DNA from: a virus
Taxonomy: Duplodnaviria; Heunggongvirae; Uroviricota; Caudoviricetes
Direction: 5' to 3' (one strand)
IMG/VR virus record: IMGVR_UViG_3300043410_000715
Span: 89,711 to 105,319 of that record
Length of the DNA stretch: 15,609 nucleotides
Below are positions 1 through 15,609 of the stretch, one piece after another. The notes beneath the pieces were generated by a model. It made no database searches, was not told the origin of the DNA, and saw nothing but the letters and a program-made list of their open reading frames with translations. The stretch's first letter is position 1. The number at the start of each line of letters is the position of its first letter. The translations under genes and the position numbers were made by a program.

Positions 1-648
1 ATTTCCTAAGTTACCATATGGTTTGTTGTGTGGGAACAACCATCCTGCAACAACACCAGTGTTGTTATTGATAACAATCTTATAGTATCCGTGAGGAACA
101 ATTACACCTTGTCCAATAGTTGGATTACCAGCGCCATATATAGCTCCAACGTATACTGTATAGCTTTGGTTCGTTTGTACTGCCCAGCCACGTACTGAAG
201 TTTCCAGTAATTTCCAGATTCCACGGTTTAGACTTCCATGCTGTGGATACATGTTTGTCATCAAAAAACTTTCGTACTCTACCATTTGATTATATGATAA
301 GTCACCATCAGGCGCCGCGTGTCCTTTATCATATCCTGTTCCAGTATAATCGTCAGGTCTTGCACCCTTTGACACAGACTGGTCTGCCACAAAAGCGTTT
401 GTTCTGGGAAAGCAACCTAAAGCATTTTGTGGTTGCAGTGTATACGCTACGTACACTGGAATTTTAGCTGGTGCATCATACGCAACAAGATACCCTTCAC
501 GACAAATAGGCTGTGCTGTTCTTTGTGTTTGTGCAAATCCATAAGGACTATGCACTTTACATTGTTCTACTGAAAGCGGGGCACGTTGATCCCACGCAAA
601 TACGTTTGTTGATAAAAGTAGTGCGATTGTTGTTATAATTCTTTTCAT
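1..648 (-). CDS. DNA/RNA non-specific endonuclease (NucA/EndoG-like His-Me finger family) with N-terminal signal peptide; 3' end runs off the window
   Basis: Not in the ORF track. Translated by hand from the ATG at 648, which overlaps the TGA of the upstream gene (ATGA): MKRIITTIALLLSTNVFA-WDQRAP...YDKGHAAPDGD...FLMTNMYPQHGSLNRGIWKLLE...VYVGAIY...VPHGYYKIV. DKGH (319-330) matches the DRGH catalytic motif and is followed by the NxxPQ...NxxxW..LE pattern. The frame is open to position 1. Confidence 0.93.
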   Translation of the reverse strand, partial: MKRIITTIALLLSTNVFAWDQRAPLSVEQCKVHSPYGFAQTQRTAQPICREGYLVAYDAPAKIPVYVAYTLQPQNALGCFPRTNAFVADQSVSKGARPDDYTGTGYDKGHAAPDGDLSYNQMVEYESFLMTNMYPQHGSLNRGIWKLLETSVRGWAVQTNQSYTVYVGAIYGAGNPTIGQGVIVPHGYYKIVINNNTGVVAGWLFPHNKPYGNLGN

Positions 649-2429
649 ATAATTCTCATGTAATCTTTAAAGTTTGCGTGTCTATCTTCTAATCCACGCA
701 TTGCGGGATTAATTGCTTTTGTAACTGCTGTGGTATCAGCAAAATTCGTAACAATTGGCTTTACTCTAGTTTTCCAATACCATACTGCAATCTTTGCGGC
801 AATGTCAGGCTTTGCGGCTAGTTCAGGATGATTCAACAAATCTATACCCAATGCTTGACCTGCCATCCTATAGTTATCACGACCTGTTAACTGAATAAAA
901 CCTCTACCATAATACTTTTGACCATCACCGGGTGCTTTATTACCTAGTATCTTAGCTGTCTTAGGTGCATATTTTACTCCGTAACGTTTCTCAAAGTAAT
1001 CTTTGCCCATTGGTTTTTCTTTTAATCTTTCAAAGTTCCACGATTCATGTTTCATTTGACCCAAGAACTGTGCTAGTTCAGGGCCTTTTAGTCCAGAACC
1101 TAATGCTGTTTTATGTACTGCGATTTCATTGTTAGCGTTATTACCTAACAAGTTATATTCTTTCGGTGGCTTAAGACCTGTCGCAGCCTGCGCACCTGCA
1201 GCCGCGGTTGCACCTAATGCACCTAATGCACCCAAGAAGCCTCTACGTGTCATATCTTCGTCAATGTCTTTTTCAACTAAATGTCTATAAGGTGCATCAC
1301 CGTTCCATTTAAACGAATCACCACCTGCACCACTAACCCCTGATTCTTGTGTTACTGGCTGTGTTTTTTTACGCAATACGAATACGTTAGTACCTGTTGC
1401 ACCTAATTGTGCTTGACCCTGTGGGCTTAGTTTACTAGTGTCGAACTGTTGATATCCAAATTGTCCAGCTAATCTGTTAATCATCTTTTGATATAAACCA
1501 CCGCGACCTTCACCCTTGCCACTGAATACAATTATCTTTGGTTGATATCCTTTTAAGTATCTTCTGATAGCAGTAACTACTGTGGCAAAGATAGCCATCT
1601 CATCACCCTTGCCAGTAAGGTCAAAGTTGTCCATCTTACTGAATTCAATATCAGTTACATTGTCACGCACAGGAACAAAGTTAATATCAATGTACTGACC
1701 TTGTCTATCATATGCACGTGCGTGAATTTCTTTAGGACCGAACTGGTCGTCCCATTCTAGTTTGTAACCAGAGTCAGGTTCAAACAATTCATTGATTTTA
1801 TTCTCTGGTTTGTCGTATGCCCTACGGTCAGTAAGAGAAAATATCATACCATCGACAGGATCTTTTTTACTGTATAAGTCCCAACCGGGTAATAATCTTT
1901 TAATCATCTTAGCATATAAACCAATGCGACTATCTTCTTTGGCATTGAATGTAATTTCTTCTACTCTGTCAAGTCCATATTCTTTTAAGAAAGCACGAGT
2001 AATATCAACTGCTGTTGACATTACTTCTGCTGAGTTACCTGTATCAGTTTTTCCAAACAAGTCTAACTCATCAGGGTCTACATCAGGTTTTCTTATCAAA
2101 CGAAATTGTATTTCCCACTTTGTAGGATTACTACCGGTAAATGCTTGCCAAAGATATTCTCTATCGCCTACTTTAAAAAACGCAGAAACTTCGTCACGAC
2201 CAAGGCGTGCCCATTCCCAGTTAGTCTTACCGGGTTTGAATAATTCATTTACTAATTCTGTATCTGTAACTTGTTGAAGTAATTCCCATGCACTATCTTG
2301 GTCACCTTGAGCAAGTAACCTTTTCATAAGTTCTTTTTCTTCGGGAGTGGCAATCTTGAAGAACTTCATCATCTCCATCATGCCTAAGTTACCTTTGTAA
2401 CTTGCTTCAATGAATTCAGTAGCTCTCAT
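645..2429 (-). CDS. Modular protein (putative virion polyprotein): two copies of an uncharacterised ~145-aa domain, then an internal Tat-like signal and a C-terminal glycoside hydrolase family 19 muramidase/chitinase-like domain
   Basis: GH19 motifs AQFLGQMKHES, YYGRGFIQLTGRDNY, LLNHPEL...AVWYW and TKAIN..GLEDR. Two similar blocks each start at xNE|LF. The start overlaps the dps stop (TAATG). Confidence 0.88.
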   Translation of the reverse strand: MRATEFIEASYKGNLGMMEMMKFFKIATPEEKELMKRLLAQGDQDSAWELLQQVTDTELVNELFKPGKTNWEWARLGRDEVSAFFKVGDREYLWQAFTGSNPTKWEIQFRLIRKPDVDPDELDLFGKTDTGNSAEVMSTAVDITRAFLKEYGLDRVEEITFNAKEDSRIGLYAKMIKRLLPGWDLYSKKDPVDGMIFSLTDRRAYDKPENKINELFEPDSGYKLEWDDQFGPKEIHARAYDRQGQYIDINFVPVRDNVTDIEFSKMDNFDLTGKGDEMAIFATVVTAIRRYLKGYQPKIIVFSGKGEGRGGLYQKMINRLAGQFGYQQFDTSKLSPQGQAQLGATGTNVFVLRKKTQPVTQESGVSGAGGDSFKWNGDAPYRHLVEKDIDEDMTRRGFLGALGALGATAAAGAQAATGLKPPKEYNLLGNNANNEIAVHKTALGSGLKGPELAQFLGQMKHESWNFERLKEKPMGKDYFEKRYGVKYAPKTAKILGNKAPGDGQKYYGRGFIQLTGRDNYRMAGQALGIDLLNHPELAAKPDIAAKIAVWYWKTRVKPIVTNFADTTAVTKAINPAMRGLEDRHANFKDYMRII

Positions 2430-2869
2430 TACTCACGTTCTTTTTTGAGGATACTGCGAATGAACCACGCTTTCTTTCCGTACAAGTCTTGTAGTTCTGC
2501 CATGAAATTAGCAATACCTTGTTGTTGCTCGTGAGTTGCTTCTTCGAACATAGCAACAACTAATTGGGACATGCGTTCACAATCTTGCAATGATTCAACA
2601 AACATTAATTCAGCACGTGGAATCTTTACTTGATCCTGAATGATTGATAACTCAGCATAACGAGTTAAACTTCCTGGAGTGTACGCACCTAATATTCTTA
2701 CGTATTCAGCAATCCTATCAATTGTACCTGATACATCACTGTATAATGTATCAAAGAATTCGTGATATTGTGGGAAGTTACTACCTTCAACGTTCCAGTG
2801 AAAGTTTTGTGATTTGATAGCAAAACTTTGTGTGCTTGCTAGTAATATTTTTAAATTGTCTGTTAGCAT
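2429..2869 (-). CDS. dps: Dps-family mini-ferritin (DNA-binding/iron-sequestering protein)
   Basis: NFHWNVEG...YHEFFD...TIDRIAE..R.LG is the Dps signature, with the ferroxidase His, His, Asp and Glu residues present; 146 aa. Confidence 0.95.
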   Translation of the reverse strand: MLTDNLKILLASTQSFAIKSQNFHWNVEGSNFPQYHEFFDTLYSDVSGTIDRIAEYVRILGAYTPGSLTRYAELSIIQDQVKIPRAELMFVESLQDCERMSQLVVAMFEEATHEQQQGIANFMAELQDLYGKKAWFIRSILKKERE

Positions 2870-2873
2870 ATAA

Positions 2874-2936
2874 TTATTTACTCAGTTTAGGAGGAGCACC
2901 TCTGTAATTCCAATAGAACTCCCACACTCTATCCAT
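2874..2936 (-). CDS. Possible 20-aa mini-ORF (MDRVWEFYWNYRGAPPKLSK)
   Basis: Starts 1 nt after the stop of the 1113-aa gene (TAA-A-ATG), the same junction seen at 6280 and 13839, and fills the gap up to dps. Too short to support by composition. Confidence 0.3.
   Translation of the reverse strand: MDRVWEFYWNYRGAPPKLSK
2875..2880 (-). promoter_or_regulatory. T4-like late promoter motif TAAATA, 5 nt upstream of the dps ATG
   Basis: Minus strand reads AG-TAAATA-ATTAT-ATG, with no Shine-Dalgarno between the motif and the ATG. It resembles the T4 gp55 consensus TATAAATA. Confidence 0.65.
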
Positions 2937-2937
2937 T

Positions 2938-5900
2938 TTATTTTTTAGCCTGTTTTTTTGCAATAGCAATAGCAGCCTGTTGTTTAGCATTCTTTGCTTC
3001 TGCTACTTTCTGTTCAGCAATCATCATTAATTCGTGTAATTGCTCAACACTTTCGCAATTCCAACGGCGTAATGCCTTATTGATTGGGCTATTAGGATCA
3101 CGTTTTGTTTTAGCACTTGCACGTGACTTCTTCATCCCACTCATTCTAGCGCAGAAAGATTTACGGCGTTTTGCGTCCTTAGAACCTTTCTTTAGTTTTG
3201 AAGGCTTCTTTGTAACAGCAGTTTTTAATTTAGAACCTGGATTCTCTCTGCGATATGCCTTGACGGCTTTACGGCTCATGCCATCAGTTTTGTCAGATTT
3301 ATTGACTTTTTGCCAATCTTCGTTAATTGCTAGTTCATCTATTTTCATATCAAATGATTCCTCTAAACTTTGTTCTTCCGCCACACCTTGCTCTTTGATC
3401 TTGTCTTGGATCTTTTTATAGCGTTGGAAGTTAGCATCTTTATCCGCATCAGTTTTACCAAACTTTCCAGCGTCCATCTTTTTATCTATTTCACGCTTGG
3501 CATATCCAGGAACAACCTTGCGTAGCGTCTGTGGCAAGCCTTCCGCCACACCTTGCTTCAATCCTTTGATGGCACGGTTAATCATACTGCGTTCCTCGTC
3601 AGGACCAATGCCCTCATATCCATAGTGCATTAGATAATCTTCATACGCATTGTTCAACGCGGTAATTACAGTTGCTCTATCAAATTGCTTTAACTGTGGG
3701 TACATCTGTAGTGCTATTGAATAGTAATTGCCACCTTCGCCTTCCGCCACGCCTTCTTTAGCAAGTTTACCTAACTCTTGTTTATATTTTTGTACAACTT
3801 GTTGGTATTGTTTAGTTTTAGCATCATCTCCTGCACGATTTGCGGCAATAGCCTTTTCTTCATACTTAGGAATAAGATTCTTTAGACTACGGATACGGTC
3901 TGCTCGTTGAGCATCTTTAAACATTGGGCTTGGTTCGCCTTCCGCCACACCTTTTTCTTTAGGTGGATTAACTGGAACAGTCTTATACACACGCTTGACA
4001 GGATCCCAAACAGTTTTGCGTGGGCCCTCTTTTGCTAATTTACCTACACGTTCAACCTTCTCATCCCATTCAGGGCCATACTCAGCTTCGCCTTCAGCAA
4101 GTTGCAAATCTTTCTTCAATGCGGCAACAACACGTTGTTTACTGCGACTGTCTAACTGGTCAATCAATTTTCTAGTTTGTGCATAAACTGTATTTAAATT
4201 TTTAGTCGCCGCTGGTGCCACTTGAGAACTAGGTGGTGTTGTCGGTGTACTTGTTGGTGTTGTATTTGCTGGTTCTTGTGCTGTAGGAGTTGCATTTGGT
4301 GGTGCAACTGAAGATGGATCAACGTCAATTTTTCTTTCTATTGATGAACCGCCACCTGGTTGACCGGGAGCAGGAATCTTCATATTATTAAACACTTGTG
4401 TGATAGTACTAGTTGGTACTCCTGCTTTTTGAATTAAACTAGCAACATCTAAACTATCTGTTGGGCTACCTGCTTTTTTCCATGCTTGCAATAACTTATC
4501 CGCAGTAATCTTTGTTGTTAGATTTTGTCCTTTAGTTGCTACATAGTTACCAACTTTACCTGCGGCACCCTTGACAGTATCCATTATACCTTCTTGTAGT
4601 CTTTGTCTCTCAACAATTTTACCAATCACTAGATATATTTGTGATTCAGAAAGTTTCTTAGACTCACTAAGTTTTGGTGAATTTGATGCAGCCGCCGCAT
4701 CATATTTTAAGAAGCCTGGATTATCGGGGTCTTTAATCCAACCTGGTAATAGTTTTCCATTATCATCATATGCAATACCTGCTTGGTTAGCTGGAATACT
4801 ATTCATTCTTTGTTGATAGTCAGCCATATTCTTAGCGTTAGTTGCATCGACCTGTGCGTTGTATGCATCAACATCTTTTACTTCAGCATCATACTTTGCT
4901 TGTTGCGCCGCATTGATTTTATCAACGTCAGCATCTACTTTAGCATTAGCACGGGCTAGTGGGTTAGTTTTACTATCAGCATAGTTAGTTTCGTCACCGG
5001 TTGGTGCAACCACAGTATCATTCGCCATCTTAGCAAACTGATCTGGATCAATCTTTGGTGGTACTCGTTGAGTATAATCAGGAGAAAGGTTACCTGATGG
5101 AACATCAACTGCTCCTTTTGGCACAAATTCCCCGCCCCAATCTACTGTATTACCAGCCCCTTGACCTGCTTGAATTGTTCCTCTTCTTGGAACATATTCC
5201 ATTTCACCTGAACCTTGTACAGGTAAAACTTTCTCACCGGAAACAGCGGCATGTTGTTGGGCACCTCTAATAGCATCACCGATCTTACTTGCACCGTAAG
5301 CCATTGCGCCTGTCTTAGTACCTTGATATGCCGCACTAGAAAACTTTTCACCTTGCAATAGTTTGTCTACCATTTTAAATAGACCCAATGCCGCGGCACC
5401 ACCAACGCCAGCACCACTAATACCGGCTGCGGCGATCAATGCTGAGTAAATCAAACTTTGTGCTACTGGATGTTTCTTAGCAAAGTCACGATACTTCTGC
5501 ACATACTGCATCACACCCTGATCGCCACCAGTTGCTTGTTTTAATTGTTCAGCAGCCTTATCATACATTGCATCAACGTTTTGAATAGGACCTGAATTCT
5601 GTACTTTAGTTTTTAAATCTTCCCATGCTTTGCTAACTGCACCTGCGGCATCTTTGCCCTTACCTAGCATAGTGCGATTGTCACCGCCTGCTGTTTGAAC
5701 ATTTTGAACGTATTGAAAAATTTGATTAATTTGGTCTGCTGTTAATTGTGCTTCTACTAATTTGTAGCCTGCACTCTCCCACAATCTAAAAGTTTTCGCT
5801 TCTGTCAACATATTTACGGGACGAGCAATAGATTCAGTAAATGAAATTGGTTCTGCAATTGGTGGCTCATCTTTCCATGGCTTCCACATTCCATACTTGT

Positions 5901-6279
5901 GATTATCAATCATGTGAACTTGCACCACGCCATCTTTGATGGGAGTAATTTTACCTACTTGTTTTTTTGCGCCCCAATTATGGTCGATATAACTTTTAAG
6001 TTCCCACTCAGCTTGTTGTGTAGTGGGCGCCTTAACTGTTACTGTCATATTATAACCAGCATCTCTATCTTCATCTTTGCTGATGTTATATTCAGGGCGT
6101 GAACCTTGTGCTGGTTGACGTTGAATAGGCTCATCATCATATTTTTCTAAATCACTATCATCATAGTCATCAACGCTAGGTTTACGAGGTTTATGTTTTA
6201 GTGCATTGTAATAATCAATATCGCTATCAAAATTGCGAGGATCAACCTCATTCACGATGCCTTTTAAAATATTACTCAT
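2938..6279 (-). CDS. 1113-aa modular protein, putative internal head/ejection polyprotein with a Gly/Ala-rich hydrophobic segment, a Pro/Thr linker, GVAE-delimited modules and a very basic C-terminal module
   Basis: Long ORF with many [VIL]-x-E boundaries (VNE, LTE, LVE, LSE twice, LQE, LAE, VAE four times, LEE, INE) and a C-terminal RRKSFCARM...ALRRWNC module. No catalytic motif was recognised. Confidence 0.8.
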   Translation of the reverse strand: MSNILKGIVNEVDPRNFDSDIDYYNALKHKPRKPSVDDYDDSDLEKYDDEPIQRQPAQGSRPEYNISKDEDRDAGYNMTVTVKAPTTQQAEWELKSYIDHNWGAKKQVGKITPIKDGVVQVHMIDNHKYGMWKPWKDEPPIAEPISFTESIARPVNMLTEAKTFRLWESAGYKLVEAQLTADQINQIFQYVQNVQTAGGDNRTMLGKGKDAAGAVSKAWEDLKTKVQNSGPIQNVDAMYDKAAEQLKQATGGDQGVMQYVQKYRDFAKKHPVAQSLIYSALIAAAGISGAGVGGAAALGLFKMVDKLLQGEKFSSAAYQGTKTGAMAYGASKIGDAIRGAQQHAAVSGEKVLPVQGSGEMEYVPRRGTIQAGQGAGNTVDWGGEFVPKGAVDVPSGNLSPDYTQRVPPKIDPDQFAKMANDTVVAPTGDETNYADSKTNPLARANAKVDADVDKINAAQQAKYDAEVKDVDAYNAQVDATNAKNMADYQQRMNSIPANQAGIAYDDNGKLLPGWIKDPDNPGFLKYDAAAASNSPKLSESKKLSESQIYLVIGKIVERQRLQEGIMDTVKGAAGKVGNYVATKGQNLTTKITADKLLQAWKKAGSPTDSLDVASLIQKAGVPTSTITQVFNNMKIPAPGQPGGGSSIERKIDVDPSSVAPPNATPTAQEPANTTPTSTPTTPPSSQVAPAATKNLNTVYAQTRKLIDQLDSRSKQRVVAALKKDLQLAEGEAEYGPEWDEKVERVGKLAKEGPRKTVWDPVKRVYKTVPVNPPKEKGVAEGEPSPMFKDAQRADRIRSLKNLIPKYEEKAIAANRAGDDAKTKQYQQVVQKYKQELGKLAKEGVAEGEGGNYYSIALQMYPQLKQFDRATVITALNNAYEDYLMHYGYEGIGPDEERSMINRAIKGLKQGVAEGLPQTLRKVVPGYAKREIDKKMDAGKFGKTDADKDANFQRYKKIQDKIKEQGVAEEQSLEESFDMKIDELAINEDWQKVNKSDKTDGMSRKAVKAYRRENPGSKLKTAVTKKPSKLKKGSKDAKRRKSFCARMSGMKKSRASAKTKRDPNSPINKALRRWNCESVEQLHELMMIAEQKVAEAKNAKQQAAIAIAKKQAKK
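3375..3953 (-). repeat. Four dispersed direct repeats encoding the (K/E/Q)GVAE linker
   Basis: AGCAAGGTGTGGCGGAAG is exact at 3375-3392 and 3540-3557. AAGG(T/C)GTGGCGGAAGGCGAA occurs at 3736-3755 and 3934-3953 (19/20 identical). All four share AAGGYGTGGCGGAAG. Confidence 0.95.
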
Positions 6280-6280
6280 T

Positions 6281-6901
6281 TTAGTGTTTCTTCTTGTTTT
6301 TGTTGTCTAAGTAGCCACGCTTGTTAGCAGTTGCCCATGCAATGTTCTCTGCTTCTTTAGAACTCTTGCCTAATTTCTTTTCTGACTTTTCAATGTGCTT
6401 AACCATACGGTCTACTTTAGCACCTTCGGCAGCGATGCCACCGGCAATAACGCCAGCAGGGCCACATTCATCAACTACATATTCATAATCTTTCATGCTT
6501 AGTGTCTTTCCACGAGCACCTCTTGATACTAGTTTCTCTGCTAAGTCGTGTAGGTCTAAATCGCTACCTGCTTCTTCACGTGCGAATTCAAGTAATCTGA
6601 TTAATAATGGAATATCAACTTTAATAACGTCTGTAGGATTCACTGAATTTTCTGGCTTTGAAAGTAAACCAGGCTTCAATTTGTTTCCTTTACCAGGAGT
6701 AATAATCTTGTCGTCTTCGTCTAGTTTCGCTTCTGAAACTCGTCCATCGCTAGTTTCTTTTCCCTCATTGACGCTGTTGGCATAGGGACCGTTTTTTGTT
6801 AGTTTTTTTGTAGGAATGCGCTTTTGCACTTCTCCTAGGGGCATAGATACAGTTGATATTGATCCTGCAGTGGTTGATTCTGATATTTCTGTGAAACGCA
6901 T
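6281..6901 (-). CDS. ~206-aa modular protein, putative internal head protein (start revised from TTG 6913 to ATG 6901)
   Basis: Begins MRFTEISE|S with a GGA 7 nt upstream. Short modules are separated by VNE, VSE, LDE, VDE and AAE. Includes the blocks DIPLLIRLLEFAREEA..DLH and KVDRMVKHI...IAWATANKRG. Confidence 0.8.
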   Translation of the reverse strand: MRFTEISESTTAGSISTVSMPLGEVQKRIPTKKLTKNGPYANSVNEGKETSDGRVSEAKLDEDDKIITPGKGNKLKPGLLSKPENSVNPTDVIKVDIPLLIRLLEFAREEAGSDLDLHDLAEKLVSRGARGKTLSMKDYEYVVDECGPAGVIAGGIAAEGAKVDRMVKHIEKSEKKLGKSSKEAENIAWATANKRGYLDNKNKKKH

Positions 6902-6904
6902 AAT

Positions 6905-6956
6905 GAAATCCAATGTGATATAGTATTTATCAAAAATCTATATACATTCGGAATTC
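6905..6956 (-). promoter_or_regulatory. Late promoter motif (ATAAATA, 6924-6930) in the loop of an imperfect hairpin whose 3' arm contains the putative RBS of the 206-aa gene
   Basis: Plus strand: gaaatcc-aatgt-g-atatag [14-nt loop] ctatat-acatt-c-ggaattc, an inverted repeat with 1 mismatch and 2 bulges. Confidence 0.65.
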
Positions 6957-6960
6957 TATT

Positions 6961-9528
6961 TTAGTATTTTCCGTTGGGATTTGCGTTTGGTGGTATGCCC
7001 GCTCTACTTGTTTTCCAGTAGAAGGCTTTTGCGTTCTTTTTGATACTGTCAGGGTGAACGTCTACTGTTAGTGCAGTCTTAAAGCGAGGATCGTTACGTT
7101 CTGCATAGCTAGGAATGTAGCCGCTTGCTTCTTCTAATTGAATGTTGACTTTTTTGATTCTACTAGGATCAATTATAGTGTCAACTATCAATTCATAGTC
7201 AGCACCTTTACTGATGTTCTTTTCTAAACCAGAAACGTCAATCTTTAGCATAGTCAACGGTTCATCGTCAAACTCGTCACCTAGCCAATTCATAACTGCA
7301 TCTTCTGCGCTTGTCCTGTCTGGAAATACATAGATTCCAGACTTCTCACCTGCTATCTGACTTGTTCTATCACCTACAGTAGGTTTAAGACCTTGCTTTG
7401 CTATTGACTTTAAATTTCTTGTAGGAGTTACATGATAGACAAACTGAGGTGTGGATTCTGCTTCTGCTACGCCCTGTTTCAACCTAGTCAATTCGTATAC
7501 TACTTGGTCGCCGTGATCCTCACTATATTCATCATATCCCCATGCTCTAGCGTATCGTCTAATTAAACTGTTGTATAGTTTTGCTCTGCTCTCACTATTT
7601 TTTGCATCGTTGGGATCCTTAGAGGCAGAAAATATTAGACGCCAAGGATGTTCTTTTTGAATGAATTGATGGATCGCACTGATTACGGTAGCAAATACTC
7701 TTTGTGCATCACCTTCGCCGGTGACCCCCATGCTGAAGTTCCTATCAAATCTCACATGCCATTCATCATCGCCTTCAGGTTCAATCATAATGCTTAACAG
7801 TGTACCATCGTCTAATGTAGCTAGTGCATCGTAATCGCCGAAATCACTTTTTTCCCAAGTAAAGGGATAGGGTTTATCAAATGCTTCAGACAATGTTTCT
7901 TTTGAGAGTTTTTCTACTTTATCTACAGCTTTTTTCAATGCGTCATCATAACCATTCTGTTTAGCTTCTTGTCTGGTCATTCCCAAGAACTGACTTAGCA
8001 TTTCTTTAGCAACTTGATTTGATAATTTTTGTCTAGTATCGCTATTAACCCTTAAATGACTTATGCTCCAATATAGAGCATCAGATAATCGTTTCATACT
8101 TAACTTGTCACCTTGTACATAGTTGTTGAATGTCTTATGTTGCTTGATAGCTCTTGGGTCTAAGATACATCCCTGATATGGTTCGCCAAACGCAATCCAA
8201 CTTTTACCTTCATCAAGCAATACAGTAAATCCCAAATTTCGTAGTATCTTATTCCATACAATGATTTTACGTTCGTCATTCTTGAATCGTCTACTTAATG
8301 CGTCATATGTAAACCATAATGCATCATTGATACCTTTCCTAGCACTCATGCTAGGCTCATCAATAGCATATTGTATATCACTATCTGTTATACCATACTC
8401 AGCTAATACTCTTTTCATGTCCTCGAAAGGGACTTTAGTATTAGGAGTCATCATGTGGCTAGTATCAAATTGTAACAACTGCATGTATGGTAAGTGGTCA
8501 CCCCAAGGCAAACGCTTTTTGTTGTCCAACATGCGTAAGAAATAATCTAATGGATAGAAATAAATGCCTTTAGGTGTGTCTTCGCTGACACTCGGTTGAG
8601 GATTGATACCTAACTTAGGAAGTAATGTCATGCTTACTCCCCAGTTACTTTTATCTCTGATACCTTCTGCGTAAGAAGCCAGTTCATATTTACCTGAACC
8701 ATACCTGTAATTCTGTTCAGGATTCGCTCTTGCTTCGTCTACTTCTTGTTGATTAAATTCTCTAGCAAACTTTTCTGCCAAGTTATCTTCTTGAACCTTA
8801 ATAGGGTCTTGGTACATTGTTTCAATAGTCAAATGTTCACTATGCAACTTGTCTCTCAGTGCATATAGTTTATCTATGTATCCTTGACTACGTAATGCTT
8901 TATATGCTAAGTTTTCAGGACCAAACTCCCCACCTTTGTCTAGTCCTGCTTTTCTATATTGTTTTATCTTTTTGATTATGTTTTCTATCTTCTTCAATTT
9001 ACTTGAGGTGAGCGCAAATTGAACTAATTCTAATAATTTATCGTATTTTGCTCTGGTAGCAGTTTGGTCAAAATTTGCTCTGCGCTTAGTTGGGATTCTA
9101 AGCCATTTGTTATCCTTGATACTGTACTCACCTAGACTTACGACTGGTTCTCTGGCGTCTTGTACGTATATTTCTACTGGTACCCCGTGTATTAAAATGT
9201 TATGTGTGTCGTTATAGATAATCTTTTTTGCATGGAATAATTCTCTATAGATATCATCATTTTCTAATCTGCTCATATCTATTAGAATGTGTAAATCTAA
9301 ATCTGAATGTGGTGTATAACTATATGCGGCGTTTGAACCCGAGACTGTTAAATCTTGTACTTCCAAATCGTGAACGCCTAATTCTGATAGAAAATCTTGT
9401 GCAACAAGTTCTAATTGTTTTTTTACTTCCGGACGCAAATGATTATTTCTCCATAACTTTGGATTCAATTCGTTATGGAAAGTGATTGCGTCAGATATCT
9501 TAAAACTGTCTAATTCTCGTAAATTCAT
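6961..9528 (-). CDS. ~855-aa multi-enzyme protein: Pol-beta-superfamily nucleotidyltransferase, ART-like module, GNAT-like repeat module, H-x-T ADP-ribosyltransferase/KptA-like module and a short terminal module (start revised from TTG 9543 to ATG 9528)
   Basis: SGSNAAYSYTPHSDLDLHILID (9295-9339) plus VEIYVQD; TPKGIYFYP...EPYQGCILDPRAIK; TGEGDAQRVFATV...RAKLY; YHVTPTRNLKSIAKQGLKP...GIYVF...YE..V..IIDP..I. Modules are bounded by VDE|A, LSE|A, VAE|A and LEE|A. Confidence 0.8.
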   Translation of the reverse strand: MNLRELDSFKISDAITFHNELNPKLWRNNHLRPEVKKQLELVAQDFLSELGVHDLEVQDLTVSGSNAAYSYTPHSDLDLHILIDMSRLENDDIYRELFHAKKIIYNDTHNILIHGVPVEIYVQDAREPVVSLGEYSIKDNKWLRIPTKRRANFDQTATRAKYDKLLELVQFALTSSKLKKIENIIKKIKQYRKAGLDKGGEFGPENLAYKALRSQGYIDKLYALRDKLHSEHLTIETMYQDPIKVQEDNLAEKFAREFNQQEVDEARANPEQNYRYGSGKYELASYAEGIRDKSNWGVSMTLLPKLGINPQPSVSEDTPKGIYFYPLDYFLRMLDNKKRLPWGDHLPYMQLLQFDTSHMMTPNTKVPFEDMKRVLAEYGITDSDIQYAIDEPSMSARKGINDALWFTYDALSRRFKNDERKIIVWNKILRNLGFTVLLDEGKSWIAFGEPYQGCILDPRAIKQHKTFNNYVQGDKLSMKRLSDALYWSISHLRVNSDTRQKLSNQVAKEMLSQFLGMTRQEAKQNGYDDALKKAVDKVEKLSKETLSEAFDKPYPFTWEKSDFGDYDALATLDDGTLLSIMIEPEGDDEWHVRFDRNFSMGVTGEGDAQRVFATVISAIHQFIQKEHPWRLIFSASKDPNDAKNSESRAKLYNSLIRRYARAWGYDEYSEDHGDQVVYELTRLKQGVAEAESTPQFVYHVTPTRNLKSIAKQGLKPTVGDRTSQIAGEKSGIYVFPDRTSAEDAVMNWLGDEFDDEPLTMLKIDVSGLEKNISKGADYELIVDTIIDPSRIKKVNIQLEEASGYIPSYAERNDPRFKTALTVDVHPDSIKKNAKAFYWKTSRAGIPPNANPNGKY

Positions 9529-9533
9529 ATATG

Positions 9534-9540
9534 TATTTAT
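9534..9540 (-). promoter_or_regulatory. T4-like late promoter motif ATAAATA, 5 nt upstream of ATG 9528
   Basis: Minus strand reads G-ATAAATA-CATAT-ATG, immediately after a terminator and with no Shine-Dalgarno. Confidence 0.7.
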
Positions 9541-9541
9541 C

Positions 9542-9567
9542 AAAACTAAAGCCCCTTTCGGGGCTTT
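9542..9567 (-). terminator. Rho-independent terminator after the glycosyltransferase gene
   Basis: Minus strand: AAAGCCCC-GAAA-GGGGCTTT-AGTTTT, a perfect 8-bp stem with a GNRA tetraloop and a U-rich tail, 3 nt after the stop. Confidence 0.85.
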
Positions 9568-9570
9568 GTA

Positions 9571-10458
9571 TTATTTGACTTCGTTACCGTCTTTATCGAC
9601 TAGTTTCATGCCTTTTTGTCGTTGTGCATCTAAGAACATAGGTCCTACTGTGTTTAATAGATGTTCTTGATTTTCCATACAGAATACGTATGAACCACTG
9701 TGACGTAATAATACACGCTTGTCAACCCAAATCTTACCACCCATGTCACGCCAGTTTTCACAGAATGTCCAGTCTTCACTGTAGTAACGATTCTGACGAA
9801 CTGCTGTGTCAAAGTATGTTTTTAAGTGTTGGTCGTACTTTGGATCAAGACCGATATCGTTCTTGTACTGTTTAACAGCTGGATGTGTCTTCATCTTCTC
9901 AAATACATGCTTCTTCATCAACAAGAAACCTGTACCAGCTTTACTTACTTCTTGTAATCCGTCTGGTCCTTCTTCTGCTCCTTCAAAGCCGTTAACAACC
10001 CACTTGATAGGCATCGTCTTCATTGGGTACAAACCACCGATAACGTCTTTGTCGTGATTCAACAAGACTAGTAAGTGCCATGGTTCCCAACCAATGTCAG
10101 CATCAACAAAGAATAAGTGAGTAGCTTCAGGCATATCCAAGAACTTTGCAGTTAGTGTATTACGTGCTCGGCTAATCAATGATTCGTTGACCATTGTTTC
10201 TAATGTCCAATCAATACCAAGTTGACGGGCTGTGTTTGCCCACTTGATAAATGACATGAATGTAGATTCTGTTAACATACCACCATAACATGGCATAGCA
10301 ATGTGTACTCGGGTAGTTTTTAAAAAGTCTACGTTAACTTGAACTTGACCCTGTTGCGGGGCTTGTTGTTGTTCTTGTGCGGCTTGTTCCGCAATTTCAT
10401 GTACCTTTTCTACGGGTACTGTTTTTTCTTCAGTTTTTTTGGTTTTCTTTGTTGCCAT
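9571..10458 (-). CDS. GT-A fold (GT2-like) glycosyltransferase
   Basis: HIAMPCY, ESLISRARN, HLFFVDAD (DxD), IGGLYPMK, AGTGFLLM, SEDWTFC and LRHSG motifs. RBS AGAGG lies 5 nt before the ATG. Confidence 0.85.
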   Translation of the reverse strand: MATKKTKKTEEKTVPVEKVHEIAEQAAQEQQQAPQQGQVQVNVDFLKTTRVHIAMPCYGGMLTESTFMSFIKWANTARQLGIDWTLETMVNESLISRARNTLTAKFLDMPEATHLFFVDADIGWEPWHLLVLLNHDKDVIGGLYPMKTMPIKWVVNGFEGAEEGPDGLQEVSKAGTGFLLMKKHVFEKMKTHPAVKQYKNDIGLDPKYDQHLKTYFDTAVRQNRYYSEDWTFCENWRDMGGKIWVDKRVLLRHSGSYVFCMENQEHLLNTVGPMFLDAQRQKGMKLVDKDGNEVK

Positions 10459-10463
10459 TTGGT

Positions 10464-10500
10464 CCTCTTTAAAGATGTAAATATTTACACTCTAAAGAGG
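10464..10500 (-). promoter_or_regulatory. Long hairpin that sequesters the glycosyltransferase RBS, with late-promoter motif TAAATA (10482-10487) at its apex
   Basis: Minus strand: CCTCTTTAGAG-TGTAAA-TA-TTTACA-T-CTTTAAAGAGG-ACCAA-ATG, about 16 bp with one G-U pair and one bulge. Confidence 0.8.
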
Positions 10501-10508
10501 GGGTCAAA

Positions 10509-13500
10509 TTATTTTTCTTCTAGATAATCATCGGCAACTTGCATTATTTTTTTATGGTCTTGCTTGATTTTATTCAAATCTGCTTTAATTTGCTTGATGT
10601 CCTGATCTTGTTCAGTATCTTCTTCTTCACTATGTTTTAACGCACGTTGGACATACTTCATAAAAGCCTGTTGCTTTGTGGGCGCATTTGGATAATGCTG
10701 TTGAACATAGTTCAAAATCTGCTGAGTTTCTGGATTCATATAGATGAATTCATCATCTTCTTTGTCACGTGACAACTCATCCAATTGTTGTTCACGCATT
10801 GGATCTTGCCCAGCACGAACTTTCTTATACCATCTTACTAGTTCATGGTCTGTGGCTAGTTCCAAATAGTTTACTTCCCAATCCATCTTCTGTGCCAAGT
10901 ATCTAATGATACGCTGTCTGTCAGAATAATTTAAAAGACTCTCAACTATTTTTTCTTTGCCATTCATTGACTCTTTAAGTCTTGCCAATTGCTCATAAAT
11001 TTTTTGTTTCTGAGCAGGTGTAGCTGTCTCAAGCATAGGCTTGATACGTTTAATGTATTCTTTAATGGCTTGTTGTTGAATGCCCATATTCTTTTTTGTA
11101 GTATCCATTAAATGTTCTATCCAATCTGAACCTAGTTTTTTAACATCAAATGCATTTAACCAAGTTTTTAATTTTTGTTGTTCGGAAGCATTTGGATCTT
11201 TTAATACGTTACGCAATTGTGTGAAACTAATACCAGTTCCACCTTTATTTGGGTCACGTTCTGTTCGCACTGTTTCAAAGTCTACTTGATTTTGTGTGCC
11301 ACCATACTTAGCAAGTGCGGCTGGATCCTTCATTCGCTTTTCTAAGCTATCCATCCAATTTTTCATGCCCTCATAACGGTCATCGCCCACTAACAATACG
11401 ATTTTATTGTATGGACTATTAACTGGTAATACAAGTTCTTTTTCAATTTTCTTCATTGGGGTTCCGCGAGAATCCCAAACTTGAATATTGTTTGCGTATT
11501 GTGGATATAGTTTACGTAATGTTGTTACTTTATCCCCTGGTGGAATAGGATCATCTGCACCCATCACAGGGCTAACATAGATGTATGGATCACCACCTAA
11601 TTTTTGTGCTGTAGCAATCGTTTGATTAATTAATTGCTCATGTCCTTTATGACCAACAAAACTACCAATAGTAACTACTGCTGGCTTAACACGATTGTCA
11701 CCTGTAGTTGGCTTTTTGTTTGCTAATTGTTTGTCAGCCATTTTCTTTTGCATGTCAGTGCTAGTAACTTTTGCAAGTGTACCGCTTGGCATGTTGATGA
11801 CCAGACCTTCAATCATATCACCCAATTGATCTTTACCAGGAATATCGCTTTTAATAATAGCGTTGCTTAATGCTTGTCTTGCTTTGCTCAAAATAGCTTT
11901 GGCTTGTTGTTTTGCAGGACTATCACCTCGTGTTGAAACTGCTTGCGTCAATGCTTCTGCGTTTTTAACGACAGGGTTAACAATCTTGCTCACATCTATT
12001 CCACGGTGGCTAAGTGTGTTGTTAATGATTTTGATATCTTTTGAACTGTCTTTAACTAACGCTTTTTTAATTTCTGCTGAGTCAGGTCTTGGTTCACCGG
12101 TGCTATATTGTCTGACGCTGATCGGAACTAATGTCATAACAGAACCTAATTTCTTAGGATCATATGGAATATTAACAAACTTCAATCGACCACCATCTTC
12201 TTTCTGAGCCATTGGATTGAATAACATTTCTGCCTGCACGATTGTGTCAGGGGGAATATCTTTCATAAACTTAGCATTAACAATTGTGCTTAATGCACTG
12301 TCATAATTTTTTGTTCGTGCTAATTGTTCTTCAGTTTGACCTTGTTTTCTACCATATATTTCAAAGTCACCGATATTATCCTTAGTCATTGGTGTATCTA
12401 CACGACTGGTCATGAAGAATGGTTCACCTTCGGCTGTTCTACCAAAGCGAATACCCGCACCATCGACTTTTAAATTGATAGGTACCCCTTCAAATTTACC
12501 ACCATCTTCTGCAATCTCTCTACAGAAGTTGATAAAGTCTACGTCTTTCATCTCAGTAGATGAACCTGGGTTGTAAATATGCTGAATGCCTTTACGCTTG
12601 TAATTGGGTGCTGCCTCATCTAGCGTATTCTTAGCCATGCTTTTAACTGTGTCTTTTCTCGACTGCACACCTTCGTCAGCTGGTGTCATCTTGTATGCTT
12701 TTCTGTAATCTTGTAACATTTTATTTAAGTTAGCAGGATTAGGTAACTTCAATGTTTTTAACATTGTGTTGATAGCAGTAGTCTTTTCAGCAATGTCTTT
12801 GTCAGGGTTATTTTTATACATACCCTGTGCACCTGGTCCTATTGTCTTTTCTAAGAAACCATTTAACACTTGTTGTTTTTCTTCTGGGCTCATTAGTGTG
12901 TTCATTACTTGTAACAACCCAGTGAATGACCAGAAATTCTTTTCTAATGCTTTTGCTTGCTGTGGCTTTAACTTTTCTCCCAATATGTTAGAGAAAATTT
13001 GTCCTATGTTTTGTTCATAACCTGATGTTGGTGCTTCACGCATCACAGGTAAGCCATCAATCATTAATGGTTTATTACCATCCATTACAGGTTCATACTT
13101 AGCACGTAAGCCGCCACCTTCTTTACTTGATACAGCAAAACTAAACATGTTGTCTGTCATAGGTGTGTCAACTTCTTGACGTAACTTACCACGACCCTTC
13201 ATCTTGCGTAAGATAAAATCTTTTCTAGTTAATGCAGTGAATGCTTGAATCAACCATTTATGGAACACACCCTTTACACCTGCTTGTAAATCGTCCCATG
13301 AACTTGAATGGCTGAAACGTGCCCAATCAGTTGGAACACCTTTGTCAAACTGTACAAACTCAAAGTCAATCTGTACTTTAACTGGTGGGTCTTGCATTTC
13401 AAACAATGCTGAGAATTGTTCATTCCCTCTTTGAAAACCTAATAATACAGCAGGGCCAATTCTCTTGTTTTCATTTTTTAATAAGAACTCTTGTAACTCT

Positions 13501-13838
13501 GGTTCTTTTTCCTTGTTCACCATTGTGTCAATGTCACCTACTGTGGGTTTCTTTGCTACGAATGTTTCGTCATCTATGCCCTTGACATTGAAAAAATGTA
13601 GTGAGCTACCGCTTAAGAATTGACCACTCTTTAACAGAGCCGGTCCCCATAATGGAGTCTTATACATTTTTTGAAACTGTGCATCGATGGCATGTAATAA
13701 CTCGTTTAACTTAGGAACCATGAAAGCACGATTTGTAACTTTTAAATCTAGGTGTTGTGCTTCATGCCCGCCTATAGCAAGATTACCACCTTCAAATAGT
13801 GATTTTTTGTTTTCTACTAATAGGTGACTGATTTTCAT
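10509..13838 (-). CDS. 1109-aa protein with a Pol-beta-like nucleotidyltransferase, a KxDG ligase-type covalent nucleotidyltransferase and a HIGH/HUP cytidyltransferase-like domain
   Basis: LSGSS (13602-13616), GDID (13527-13538) and QIDF; LKVDG (12459-12470), QAEM, IEGLVI (11796-11810) and AKV, matching ligase motifs I, III, IV and V; IGSFVGHKGH (11640-11666), LLVGDDR and ISFTQLR. Confidence 0.82.
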   Translation of the reverse strand: MKISHLLVENKKSLFEGGNLAIGGHEAQHLDLKVTNRAFMVPKLNELLHAIDAQFQKMYKTPLWGPALLKSGQFLSGSSLHFFNVKGIDDETFVAKKPTVGDIDTMVNKEKEPELQEFLLKNENKRIGPAVLLGFQRGNEQFSALFEMQDPPVKVQIDFEFVQFDKGVPTDWARFSHSSSWDDLQAGVKGVFHKWLIQAFTALTRKDFILRKMKGRGKLRQEVDTPMTDNMFSFAVSSKEGGGLRAKYEPVMDGNKPLMIDGLPVMREAPTSGYEQNIGQIFSNILGEKLKPQQAKALEKNFWSFTGLLQVMNTLMSPEEKQQVLNGFLEKTIGPGAQGMYKNNPDKDIAEKTTAINTMLKTLKLPNPANLNKMLQDYRKAYKMTPADEGVQSRKDTVKSMAKNTLDEAAPNYKRKGIQHIYNPGSSTEMKDVDFINFCREIAEDGGKFEGVPINLKVDGAGIRFGRTAEGEPFFMTSRVDTPMTKDNIGDFEIYGRKQGQTEEQLARTKNYDSALSTIVNAKFMKDIPPDTIVQAEMLFNPMAQKEDGGRLKFVNIPYDPKKLGSVMTLVPISVRQYSTGEPRPDSAEIKKALVKDSSKDIKIINNTLSHRGIDVSKIVNPVVKNAEALTQAVSTRGDSPAKQQAKAILSKARQALSNAIIKSDIPGKDQLGDMIEGLVINMPSGTLAKVTSTDMQKKMADKQLANKKPTTGDNRVKPAVVTIGSFVGHKGHEQLINQTIATAQKLGGDPYIYVSPVMGADDPIPPGDKVTTLRKLYPQYANNIQVWDSRGTPMKKIEKELVLPVNSPYNKIVLLVGDDRYEGMKNWMDSLEKRMKDPAALAKYGGTQNQVDFETVRTERDPNKGGTGISFTQLRNVLKDPNASEQQKLKTWLNAFDVKKLGSDWIEHLMDTTKKNMGIQQQAIKEYIKRIKPMLETATPAQKQKIYEQLARLKESMNGKEKIVESLLNYSDRQRIIRYLAQKMDWEVNYLELATDHELVRWYKKVRAGQDPMREQQLDELSRDKEDDEFIYMNPETQQILNYVQQHYPNAPTKQQAFMKYVQRALKHSEEEDTEQDQDIKQIKADLNKIKQDHKKIMQVADDYLEEK

Positions 13839-13839
13839 T

Positions 13840-14226
13840 TTAATAACTTAATTTAACGTATTGTACGCCACCGCCAGCAAGGTCTTCGATTTTTGCACGA
13901 ATGTAAACAAAGTTGCCCTCAACGTTTGTATAAACACTTGCATTACTTGCGATTTGCGGTGCTGAATTTGAAGCCGCATTTGCGTTTGCTTCTAGTTCAT
14001 AAACTTTGAACCAATCATCGTTACCAGGAGTCGTTGCTAAACTTGCTTGAATAACAATATTACCAGTCAAGTTAGTAGCTTTAATAGCCACTGTTTGTAG
14101 GTCTTTGTTACCCAAATAAAATGCGGCAGCTGGTTGACTGTTTCCAGTAACTGTGTATGGAGCTCCGTTTCCCGGATTGACGTAAGCTGTCTGAGGGAAA
14201 AGTATAAGTGTAGTCGTTTGTGACAT
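13840..14226 (-). CDS. Hypothetical 128-aa beta-strand-rich protein, possibly a virion structural/decoration protein
   Basis: Thr/Asn/Gly/Ala-rich with alternating hydrophobic strands (GNFVYIRAKI). Coupled on both sides (TAATG upstream, TAA-A-ATG downstream). The function is only a guess. Confidence 0.75.
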   Translation of the reverse strand: MSQTTTLILFPQTAYVNPGNGAPYTVTGNSQPAAAFYLGNKDLQTVAIKATNLTGNIVIQASLATTPGNDDWFKVYELEANANAASNSAPQIASNASVYTNVEGNFVYIRAKIEDLAGGGVQYVKLSY

Positions 14227-14427: not shown

Positions 14428-15162
14428 TTAGATAGGATCGGGACGCTTTTCCAGTTTGTACTTTTTACCCAGCATCTCCCCGTGCAATAGTGCTAGATAG
14501 CTTAACGTTGATTCGTCATCATATTCTATGAAATGACTAGAACTTGTAAACGTATATCTCCAAAAACGTTGGTGACTTCTATCGGAAATAGCATCTTTTA
14601 GCCAACGATTGAATGTTGGGCTAGGGTGTAGTGCTGGGCTACGTTCTAGTAAATCATTCAAATCTATTAAGAAATTATCATCCTTAACACGTTTAGATTT
14701 TAAATATATCCTAAATTTGTGTGCTGGTTCATTTACAAACAGTTTGATACCCGCATACTGTGAGGTCTGTGCTTCAGTATAGTCAATATTTAAATTATTT
14801 CCAAACTGTTCAATTTCCTTCAATAAAGTTAAATCGTTGCAAAATATTGCGGCAGTTTCGTACTCAACTCTAATGGTTGCTTTTTTATCAGCCTTCCTTA
14901 AGTTTCGCCATTCAATAAAATTACACAACGCTTCAAGGTTTGCTTTTATTTCAGGCAAATCTTCTTTTCTAATTCTAGAAAATGCTTTGTGTTTTCCAGC
15001 TAGACGGTCACGCAAATCTTGGGGTGTGTTAGAAAACCAAGTATATCTGATACCAGGAATTTTTAAACGTGCCCTGTAGTTGTATTTGTTGTAATAGATA
15101 TTATCACGGTATTCATAAAAATCAATACCGGGTACATTATCAACTGACTTCAATAATCCCAT
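14428..15162 (-). CDS. Hypothetical protein (~244 aa); likely start ATG 15162 rather than 15180
   Basis: Long ORF with phage-like composition and AAGGT 8 nt upstream of ATG 15162. It overlaps the end of the ClpA-like gene by 23 nt. No motif recognised. Confidence 0.75.
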   Translation of the reverse strand: MGLLKSVDNVPGIDFYEYRDNIYYNKYNYRARLKIPGIRYTWFSNTPQDLRDRLAGKHKAFSRIRKEDLPEIKANLEALCNFIEWRNLRKADKKATIRVEYETAAIFCNDLTLLKEIEQFGNNLNIDYTEAQTSQYAGIKLFVNEPAHKFRIYLKSKRVKDDNFLIDLNDLLERSPALHPSPTFNRWLKDAISDRSHQRFWRYTFTSSSHFIEYDDESTLSYLALLHGEMLGKKYKLEKRPDPI

Positions 15163-15609
15163 CTTCTCCGACCTTTGCATTTAGTTTCTGTGCAACATTA
15201 AAATCAATAGTATCAGTGCCCATCACTGCTGTTACAGTAGCATTTTTGATTCGCTCAAACAAAATCTTTTTGCTCAATGGTACACGAATCAATTCATCAA
15301 TCTTACGTGCTAGAGGACGTGCGCCCATCTTCTTATCATAGCCCTTTTCTGCTAGATAATCAATGACTGGTTCAGTCAATGTTAACGTAATATTGTGCTT
15401 GTCCACTAATTGTTTCTTCAAATCTTCTGTAAATTTAACTACGATTTTCTTAATTGCTAGATTGTCTAGTTTAGCAAATTTACACACTAAATCCAAGCGA
15501 TTACGGAACTCTGGTTTAAAGAATTCTTTCAATGCTTTATCATCTTCGCCGGTCTTTTCTTGACTACCGAAACCGATAACATTTTTTTCGTTATCAGCAC
15601 TACCCAAAT
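15140..15609 (-). CDS. clpA: ClpA/ClpB-family AAA+ ATPase, C-terminal part (end of D2 and D2-small domain); 5' end lies outside the window
   Basis: LGS...IGF...FFKPEFRNRLD...GYDKKMGARPLARKIDELIRVPLSKKILF. The track's 'start' TTG at 15607 is most likely an internal Leu. Confidence 0.88.
   Translation of the reverse strand, partial: LGSADNEKNVIGFGSQEKTGEDDKALKEFFKPEFRNRLDLVCKFAKLDNLAIKKIVVKFTEDLKKQLVDKHNITLTLTEPVIDYLAEKGYDKKMGARPLARKIDELIRVPLSKKILFERIKNATVTAVMGTDTIDFNVAQKLNAKVGEDGIIEVS

Follow-up and report, generated by a model that had tools for sequence, protein, structure and literature searches.

Putative capsid-cargo precursors with head-protease-type junctions in a giant T4-related phage

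Introduction

The last 15.6 kb of the 105-kb IMG/VR virus contig IMGVR_UViG_3300043410_000715 (15,609 nucleotides, positions 89,711 to 105,319 of the record; hereafter the window) raise the question of why five genes of a giant T4-related phage, P0001 to P0005, encode long strings of modules that are joined at a hydrophobic residue, any residue and a glutamate. A first-pass annotation, which was made from the sequence alone, had proposed that these strings are polyproteins that are cut during head maturation into separate enzymes and ejected with the DNA. This proposal gained support from the T4-type sites at the module boundaries, the leaders, the shuffled orthologues, the standalone homologues that start at P1', the presence of the protease in relatives and one homologue that was found in virions. 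We consider that the five genes probably encode capsid-cargo precursors that would be cut by the head protease and delivered with the DNA, and we give this reading a probability of roughly two in three. The contig is about 30% complete and its proteome comprises 29.6k aa. A complete 364-kb relative, G001, which has 507 open reading frames (ORFs), is syntenic with the window. A megablast search of the window against cultured phages revealed no near-identical DNA. The minus strand carries all of the genes of interest, among them the five ORFs that had been annotated, which are present.

645-2429, minus strand: P0001, 594 aa
2938-6279, minus strand: P0002, 1113 aa
6281-6913, minus strand: P0003, 210 aa with the TTG start, 206 aa with the ATG start at 6901
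6961-9543, minus strand: P0004, 860 aa with the TTG start, 855 aa with the ATG start at 9528
10509-13838, minus strand: P0005, 1109 aa

Results

Most of the weight is carried by the comparisons with standalone proteins, leaders and shuffled orthologues. P0004 has more than 1500 relatives with a constant N-terminal nucleotidyltransferase (NTase) and a constant C-terminal module, between which the internal modules (DUF6934, ADP-ribosyltransferase (ART)-like, deaminase, peptidases and others) vary and swap order; Peptidase M48/U49 domains were found in one of them. Among 120 of these relatives, nearly all of the 126 starts of the C-terminal ASGYIPS module and 66 of 66 DUF6934 starts directly followed [ILVM]-x-E, and at both junctions the P2 position was free and the upstream sequence was unrelated. 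The first domain of P0005, which starts with GGN, was compared across the diverse representative clusters of its family: 28 representatives begin with M-GGN, and 76 of the 80 that have upstream sequence carry [ILVMF]xE immediately before GGN, compared with a background of 1.7%, no matter whether that upstream sequence is a leader of 5-20 residues or another module. The standalone DUF6934 proteins carry the leader MRA[NTS]EF[ILV][ST]E/ (here and below, a slash marks the putative cut), which ends directly before the start residue of the internal copies, and in the standalone GH19 homologues the same type of leader is followed by an RRGFLG segment. DUF6321, likewise, also occurs as a standalone ORF of about 100-125 aa with the same leader in many phages; these proteins have M[KR]xxE[IF] before NEDWQ, which P0002 retains as an embedded MKIDELAINE/D.

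The leader consensus in the lineage is MRAxEF[IL]xE, which aligns with the capsid targeting sequence (CTS) of T4 minus one residue. In the T4 record, IPII and IPIII begin with MKTYQEFIAE/A and IPI begins with MKTFKEF...ITE/A. In T4, the first 10 residues are sufficient for capsid targeting; residues 4 and 7 contribute to this targeting, whereas processing depends on residues 8 and 10 (PMC9026906). Clear leaders in the window are those of P0001 (MRATEFIE/A) and P0003 (MRFTEISE/S), while P0002 has a variant form, the leader of P0005 is an MKIS..[IL][IL]xE variant and P0004 has no clear one. The P0003 orthologue in G001 has the MKIS-type leader (MKINQIIVE/) in place of the MRF form.

2406-2429, minus strand: P0001 leader MRATEFIE, which resembles the T4 CTS
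6247-6279, minus strand: P0002 N-terminal leader MSNILKGIVNE/
6281-6901, minus strand: P0003 from ATG, a small basic protein of 206 aa, with the leader MRFTEISE/ at 6878-6901
13791-13838, minus strand: P0005 leader MKISHLLVE..LFE/

The leader pattern was found at 10 of the 507 ORF N-termini of G001 and at none of 2516 internal Met positions (Fisher 1.6e-8). Because the leader codons differ synonymously and the DNA upstream of the leader genes is unrelated, selection acts on the leader peptide. One of the leader-bearing G001 proteins combines GNAT with PF18760 ART-PolyVal.

A Peptidase_S77 (gp21-type) protease was found above the Pfam cut-off in three large relatives, two of which are 100% complete, G001 included. 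The head module of G001 follows the T4 order, i.e., portal, acidic core protein, protease (285722-286357), scaffold and major capsid protein. Its capsid protein contains LLAE/SS about 23 residues before the conserved VIRRV block, comparable to FLTE/A in T4 gp23, and its scaffold protein contains three [LV]AE/[GS] sites; by analogy with T4, these are putative cleavage sites.

Every hydrophobic-x-Glu site that had been annotated was found in the five proteins, but the expected enrichment held only in part. Per 1000 aa, the five proteins contain 17.2 bare [ILV]xE motifs and the rest of the contig 15.4, whereas for the form with a small P1' residue the values are 8.0 and 4.0, a twofold difference. 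Density was therefore dropped as an argument, as a bare list of sites proves nothing, and some of the annotated sites are probably due to chance; several, e.g., LVE/A, LSE/S and LQE/G in P0002, may be meaningless. What stood of the claim that the sites mark module boundaries was their non-random placement, in the linkers of the AlphaFold 2 (AF2) models and in the shuffled relatives. Of the five GVAE joints in the contig proteome, P0002 holds four and P0004 the remaining one. In related contigs [QEK]GVAE[GAED] occurs up to six times per ORF at distances of 50-130 aa. A literature search found no paper in which GVAEG and phage appear together.

The domain calls of the first-pass annotation (NTases, ligase-like, ART-like, GNAT-like and muramidase) were upheld by Pfam and fold searches. 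The Pfam matches of the cut-out segments were mostly sub-threshold. The modules of P0004 are as follows.

8833-9483, minus strand: ANT/AadA-like Pol-beta NTase (Foldseek E 2e-3; hGS..DxD motif)
7897-8697, minus strand: mid domain (AF2)
7885-7893, minus strand: junction LSE/
7480-7884, minus strand: DUF6934/GNAT-like module, aa 557-690
7462-7473, minus strand: junction GVAE/
7144-7455, minus strand: Tpt1/KptA-like ART lobe, aa 697-800
7129-7137, minus strand: junction LEE/
6964-7128, minus strand: conserved ASGYIPS C-terminal module

The AF2 model of P0004, which was built on the family alignment, has a mean predicted local distance difference test (pLDDT) score of 68, with 75-90 in the domains and low confidence at residues 1-20, 238-282, 550-554, 689-699 and 802-860. 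As the first-pass annotation had anticipated, the sites coincide with domain boundaries in the AlphaFold models of P0004 and P0005, and in P0004 each inter-domain linker holds one (VDE/A, LSE/A, GVAE/A and LEE/A). Residues with pLDDT <50 make up 21% of P0004 and hold nine of the 17 [ILVMF]xE sites (p=0.003) and six of the seven sites with a small P1' residue (p=5e-4), a test that is not fully clean because Glu is generally common in linkers. In a fold search of the model, the DUF6934 module resembled GNAT (Z ~8) and the DNase-I-like subdomain of RNase E (Z 10), and aa 697-800 matched residues 88-180 of Tpt1/KptA chains (Z 9.3-9.5, rmsd 2.7, 24-31% identity). Tpt1/KptA enzymes consist of an N-terminal RNA lobe with a catalytic Arg-His-Arg-Arg tetrad and a C-terminal NAD lobe. 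As a full RNA 2'-phosphotransferase of this family, P0004 was rejected: only the NAD (ART-fold) lobe was matched, so the domain is a Tpt1-related ART fold and not a Tpt1 enzyme, and the Pfam PTS_2-RNA score of 15 bits lies below the cut-off of 26. The mid domain (aa 295-477) is weakly similar to residues 1418-1607 of the cyanophage A4 pre-ejectosome protein gp27 (9k3a chain B; Foldseek E 1.9e-4, Z 7.5), which, as a weak model-based lead, was kept out of the evidence.

P0005 is composed of the following parts, which follow its leader.

12678-13790, minus strand: viral Pol-beta NTase, aa 17-387 (motifs, Atlas neighbours)
12615-12677, minus strand: disordered linker ending in LDE/ (AF2)
11730-12614, minus strand: RNA-ligase-like KxDG domain, aa 410-703
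11082-11690, minus strand: PPAT/NMNAT-like HxGH domain, aa 717-919 (Z 13.4)
10512-10970, minus strand: variable helical tail with an invariant C-terminal DYLEEK

Its AF2 model, also built on the family alignment, has a mean pLDDT of 84, and the weak stretches of the 960-residue core are just 1-13, 388-409 and 959-962, which end at or adjoin LFE16/G, LDE408/A and LKE956/S (p=0.008). In the orthologue alignment E9, E16 and E408 are invariant and residues 386-401 are variable. The KVDG at aa 457-460, also invariant among the orthologues, provides the KxDG motif I lysine of the RNA ligase superfamily, and aa 410-703 aligned with the NgrRnl NTase domain (Z 11.2, 192 residues) and with yeast Trl1 (Foldseek E 4.5e-6); this segment is a predicted RNA-ligase adenylyltransferase fold. 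A search of the P0005 sequence against solved structures gave no match, and with the profile A3 the HxGH stretch alone matched solved structures. There is no Glu site between the ligase-like and HxGH domains, and the core (residues 1-955) was never shuffled among the orthologues; judging from the alignments, these two modules behave as a single unit. DYLEEK (10512-10529, minus strand; DY[LI][ED]EK) ends all of the P0005 orthologues and also a 400-aa protein at the same locus in G001, and the 150-400 residues that precede it are unrelated among the orthologues. It may be a docking or processing signal.

Cultured phages provided two further comparisons. In Xanthomonas phage X1, P0005 is paralleled by four separate neighbouring genes without the leader (79667-83016 of the record). 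BLASTP matched the first of these genes to the NTase module and the third to the ligase-like module; the second is situated between these two, and the fourth carries an adenylyl/cytidylyltransferase annotation. This Rosetta-stone relation argues that the modules of P0005 form a functionally coupled set rather than random passengers, so the earlier description of the modules as unrelated does not apply to P0005; the arrangement suggests a single pathway, plausibly one that acts on RNA ends. In Campylobacter phage vB_CcoM-IBB_35, gene 1-56 is 28% identical to the first module of P0005 over 369 residues (E 8e-22), and its N-terminus, MKLSELMFILE/GGN, has the leader form. Its product was identified in purified virions by ESI-MS/MS with 17% coverage (PMC3322345, supplement).

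In P0001, a small module and two DUF6934 copies precede a muramidase.

aa 9-62 of P0001, minus strand: small module after the leader
1830-2243 and 1395-1787, minus strand: two DUF6934 modules (Pfam DUF6934 5.7e-12)
1257-1265, minus strand: IDE/ site that precedes the twin-arginine segment
1179-1256, minus strand: Tat-like twin-arginine hydrophobic segment (RRGFLG, Gly/Ala-rich core, AQA)
648-1124, minus strand: GH19 muramidase, aa 436-594 (Pfam 6.8e-16)

The muramidase was identified as GH19 by a PF00182 match at aa 436-558 (59.2 bits, gathering cut-off 25.5) and it also matches the endolysins of PHROG 181 (2e-39). The Tat-like segment begins two residues past the Glu of the IDE/ site, and a cut there would place this signal at the new N-terminus. 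A Glu site 2-3 residues before the RR motif was found in four different contexts, one of which is a GVAE joint. The same Glu-to-Tat spacing was seen after a plain leader in the sequences labelled L142, L143, L147 and L157 and after a GVAE joint in L139. In the G001 counterpart the twin arginine is gone and the hydrophobic segment is retained; G001 additionally has a second, leaderless GH19.

Many modules of P0002 and P0003 are small and basic, and the parts identified in P0002 are listed below.

5830-6246, minus strand: conserved N-terminal module
5377-5454, minus strand: glycine-zipper hydrophobic segment
3940-3951, 3742-3753, 3541-3552 and 3376-3387, minus strand: four GVAE junctions, which bound four modules of about 55-67 aa
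3319-3348, minus strand: embedded leader-like peptide MKIDELAINE/D, which ends in INE/
3055-3318, minus strand: basic DUF6321 module

Module m1 of P0002 recurs beside other neighbours. The 1140-aa orthologue in G001 (117095-120517) has a SAM-methyltransferase-like module between the joints and ends in SESNIMKGIKK, a stop-shortened copy of its own leader MSNIFKGIK; from this C-terminus it looks as if modules are appended along with their leaders. The family of small basic modules extends well beyond giant phages. T4-like cyanophages encode proteins in which the same small basic modules, which contain Cys, are followed by a terminal DUF6321 (P-SSM2 105913-106728 and an S-B43 protein); one of them is located between gp15 and gp16, and another bears the annotation 'structural protein'. 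Virion support for DUF6321 went no further than this unreferenced label in phage S-B43. Cyanophage DUF6321 (T4-GC119) has been described as hypothetical and as part of a mobile cassette, and it was not found in the supplement.

The putative cargo genes are interleaved with four genes that have no leader and that are syntenic in the 364-kb relative, where the corresponding locus has the same genes with other module sets and more GVAE joints. The remaining features, which include two ORFs directly upstream of P0005 and motifs that resemble late promoters, are given below.

1-648, minus strand: signal-peptide non-specific endonuclease (secreted nuclease), without leader
2429-2869, minus strand: Dps/ferritin-like protein, without leader
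9571-10458, minus strand: glycosyltransferase-like protein, without leader
15140-15607, minus strand: C-terminal piece of a ClpA/B-like ATPase, without leader
13840-14226, minus strand: orf128, a beta-rich ORF of 128 aa, directly upstream of P0005
14226-14393, minus strand: 55-aa ORF, directly upstream of orf128 and P0005
6923-6930, minus strand: late-promoter-like ATAAATAC (in TGATAAATAC), upstream of P0003-P0002
9533-9540, minus strand: late-promoter-like ATAAATAC, separated by 4 nt from the ATG of P0004
14415-14422, minus strand: late-promoter-like ATAAATAC, which heads the unit of the 55-aa ORF, orf128 and P0005
9548-9567, minus strand: terminator hairpin after the glycosyltransferase-like gene

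The exact TGATAAATAC occurs three times in the window, each time between genes and on the coding strand, and it heads three units: the 55-aa ORF, orf128, P0005 and the glycosyltransferase-like gene; P0004; and P0003, P0002, the Dps-like gene, P0001 and the nuclease. In G001, ATAAATA[CT] occurs 51 times. In 32 cases a start codon follows within 60 nt, and the genes so preceded include tail-fibre-like, head and several leader-bearing ones; the orthologue of the 55-aa ORF in G001 is likewise preceded by this motif, at a distance of 31 nt. The products of the 55-aa ORF and orf128 are possibly structural. At P0004, TGATAAATAC ends only 4 nt short of the ATG, which suggests a late mRNA that is leaderless or has a very short leader, or else a role in translation start. 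A scan of the window for sigma-70 promoters gave no more matches than shuffled sequence.

Discussion

Based on these comparisons, we propose that the leader (MRAxEF[IL]xE, MKIS..[IL][IL]xE or similar) would act like the T4 CTS and dock the precursor on the prohead core. A gp21-type protease would then strip the leader and cut after Glu at the [ILVM]-x-E junctions, including GVAE. This would free in the head two Pol-beta NTases, the unit of the RNA-ligase-like and PPAT/NMNAT-like domains, the Tpt1/KptA-like ART-fold domain, the GNAT-like DUF6934, the small basic proteins of the DUF6321 type and the GH19 muramidase, whose Tat-like signal would now be N-terminal. Leaving the head along with the DNA, the products would be active from time zero, and their plausible roles are RNA repair or modification, NAD-linked chemistry and the breaching of the wall.

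Several observations weigh against this proposal. The raw density of [ILV]xE is at chance level, and the pLDDT test carries the reservation given above. P0004 begins with MNLRELDSF and its first 20 residues contain no clear Glu site. The Dps-like, glycosyltransferase-like and secreted nuclease genes, which have no leader, are mixed into the cluster. The homologues of the P0005 first domain in Vibrio phage Va1 and Xanthomonas phage X1 are leaderless and start with M-GGN, which means that the enzymes need not be packaged to function, and the virion mass spectrometry of IBB_35 gives no N-terminus for the gene 1-56 product (PMC3322345). The canonical T4 late promoter TATAAATA was not found in the window, and two of the ATAAATAC motifs lie 4-6 nt from an ATG, which is an odd spacing for a promoter. 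No prohead protease (PF03420 search) or capsid genes were found in the 105-kb contig, which is uninformative because the contig is incomplete; the gp21-like protease that the first-pass annotation had expected elsewhere in the genome was thus located in the three relatives and not in the contig.

The leaderless homologues in cultured phages, together with the chance-level motif density and the gene order of X1, which suggests the fusion of a pathway, would suit ordinary cytoplasmic multidomain enzymes that are not packaged, with the joints as flexible linkers or recombination joints and the leader serving translation initiation or another localisation. We regard this as quite unlikely, as P3 and P1 are strictly kept before unrelated modules while P2 and the codons vary, the leader agrees with the T4 CTS at the targeting and processing positions (PMC9026906), a leader-bearing homologue (IBB_35 gene 1-56) is a virion protein and the same type of site is present in the capsid and scaffold proteins of relatives. 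The proteins might, on the other hand, be targeted and cut but serve mainly as core, scaffold or DNA-condensing filler that is expelled or retained, with no injected enzymes. Most of the T4 core fragments do exit the head after gp21 cleavage (PMC9026906), and many of the modules in P0002 and P0003 are small, basic and of low complexity. Against this stand the intact enzyme folds with high-confidence predictions (RNA-ligase-like, Z 11.2; PPAT/NMNAT-like, Z 13.4; Tpt1-like, Z 9.5 and identities that reach 31%; and GH19), the retention of KxDG and HxGH, which filler would not need, and the precedent of T4 Alt and the internal proteins as injected cargo, and we therefore consider filler very unlikely.

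For the GH19 part of P0001 alone, an endolysin that is exported by a Tat or signal-arrest-release (SAR) route, from Met393 or as the whole chain, and that serves lysis rather than entry must also be weighed. In its favour, the stretch behind IDE/ qualifies as a good twin-arginine signal that ends in AxA, and the standalone proteins with leader, RRGFLG and GH19 also resemble a Tat signal with a long n-region. Against it stand the recurrence of a Glu site 2-3 residues before RR in four contexts, GVAE joint included, the second, leaderless GH19 in G001, which fits the endolysin role, and the loss of the twin arginine in G001, where the hydrophobic segment is kept; we consider an endolysin here unlikely.

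Among the closest known systems are IPI, IPII, IPIII and Alt of T4, with their CTS and gp21 processing. The proposed cargo precursors resemble them in a short M-[KR]-x-x-(x)-E-F-I-x-E type of leader that ends in hydrophobic-x-Glu, in the gp21-family (Peptidase_S77) protease of the large relatives and in a high variability between related phages, and Alt provides a precedent for an injected enzyme. The T4 cargo differs in that each chain holds a single small protein, or a single enzyme, plus a terminal propeptide, and its leader is one residue longer; the chains described here reach 1113 aa with 4-8 modules, internal junctions, the GVAE joint and extensive shuffling. Thomas et al. are said to have reported in 2012 that phiKZ-type head proteases prefer a small P3 residue, i.e., [SAG]-x-E. 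This motif was rejected for the junctions, which fit the T4 motif with an aliphatic P3. In the inner-body and ejection proteins of phiKZ, 201phi2-1 and SPN3US, head proteins of giant phages are cut after Glu at many sites by a gp21-related protease (gp175/gp245) and cargo is ejected, as is proposed here (PMC9026906, PMC5694885, PMC10052503); no sequence homology to those proteins was seen. Podophage ejection proteins (T7 gp16; cyanophage A4 gp28 and gp27, PMC12002296) are also internal to the capsid and combine a muralytic enzyme with hydrophobic segments, but they form an ordered core on the portal and have no reported cutting into modules.

The polyvalent proteins described by Iyer et al. 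in 2017 (PMC5512222) likewise carry disparate domains (NTases, ART, GNAT and peptidoglycan hydrolase) in one chain and are predicted to enter the host with the DNA. At least two disparate domains per chain, by which such proteins are defined, were found here by Pfam, AF2 and fold searches, and the PF18760 ART-PolyVal domain of the leader-bearing G001 protein links the cargo set to the polyvalent repertoire. None of the typical hub domains (such as zincin-like MPTase, MuF and ART-PolyVal) was found in the five window proteins at the Pfam thresholds. For the polyvalent proteins, release by embedded peptidases was proposed, with the zincin-like MPTase as a hub and assemblin-like or LonC peptidases in some (PMC5512222); release by the head protease at conserved junctions and a CTS-type leader are outside that proposal and definition.

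A broader and more tentative possibility, which we consider rather unlikely as a whole, is a general system of cargo cassettes, in which in-frame insertion into a leader-bearing precursor would be open to any module that is framed by a hydrophobic-x-Glu joint, so that one late gene may deliver a changeable set of pre-made enzymes. The set here, i.e., the Trl1-like ligase, the Tpt1-like ART domain, two NTases and the NMNAT/PPAT-like enzyme, would form a time-zero RNA-repair and NAD set directed against anticodon nucleases and NAD-depleting defences, and the Tat signal of the muramidase would be unmasked only by the head protease, so that the injected enzyme is re-exported from within the cell to the periplasm.

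If the five genes do encode cargo precursors, then T4-type head targeting and gp21 processing would not be confined to a few small internal proteins but would be a general means of modular enzyme delivery in abundant environmental giant phages, the scale of which is indicated by the relatives of P0004 (>1500) and by about 1000 representative clusters of another of the proteins. Testable functions would be available for viral unknowns, including DUF6934, DUF6321 and DUF6267, and their mosaic architectures would be explained. Foreign proteins might be brought into large capsids with the help of the conserved leader and joint. Moreover, such phages would bring pre-packaged counter-defence enzymes into the host that act before any phage gene is expressed.

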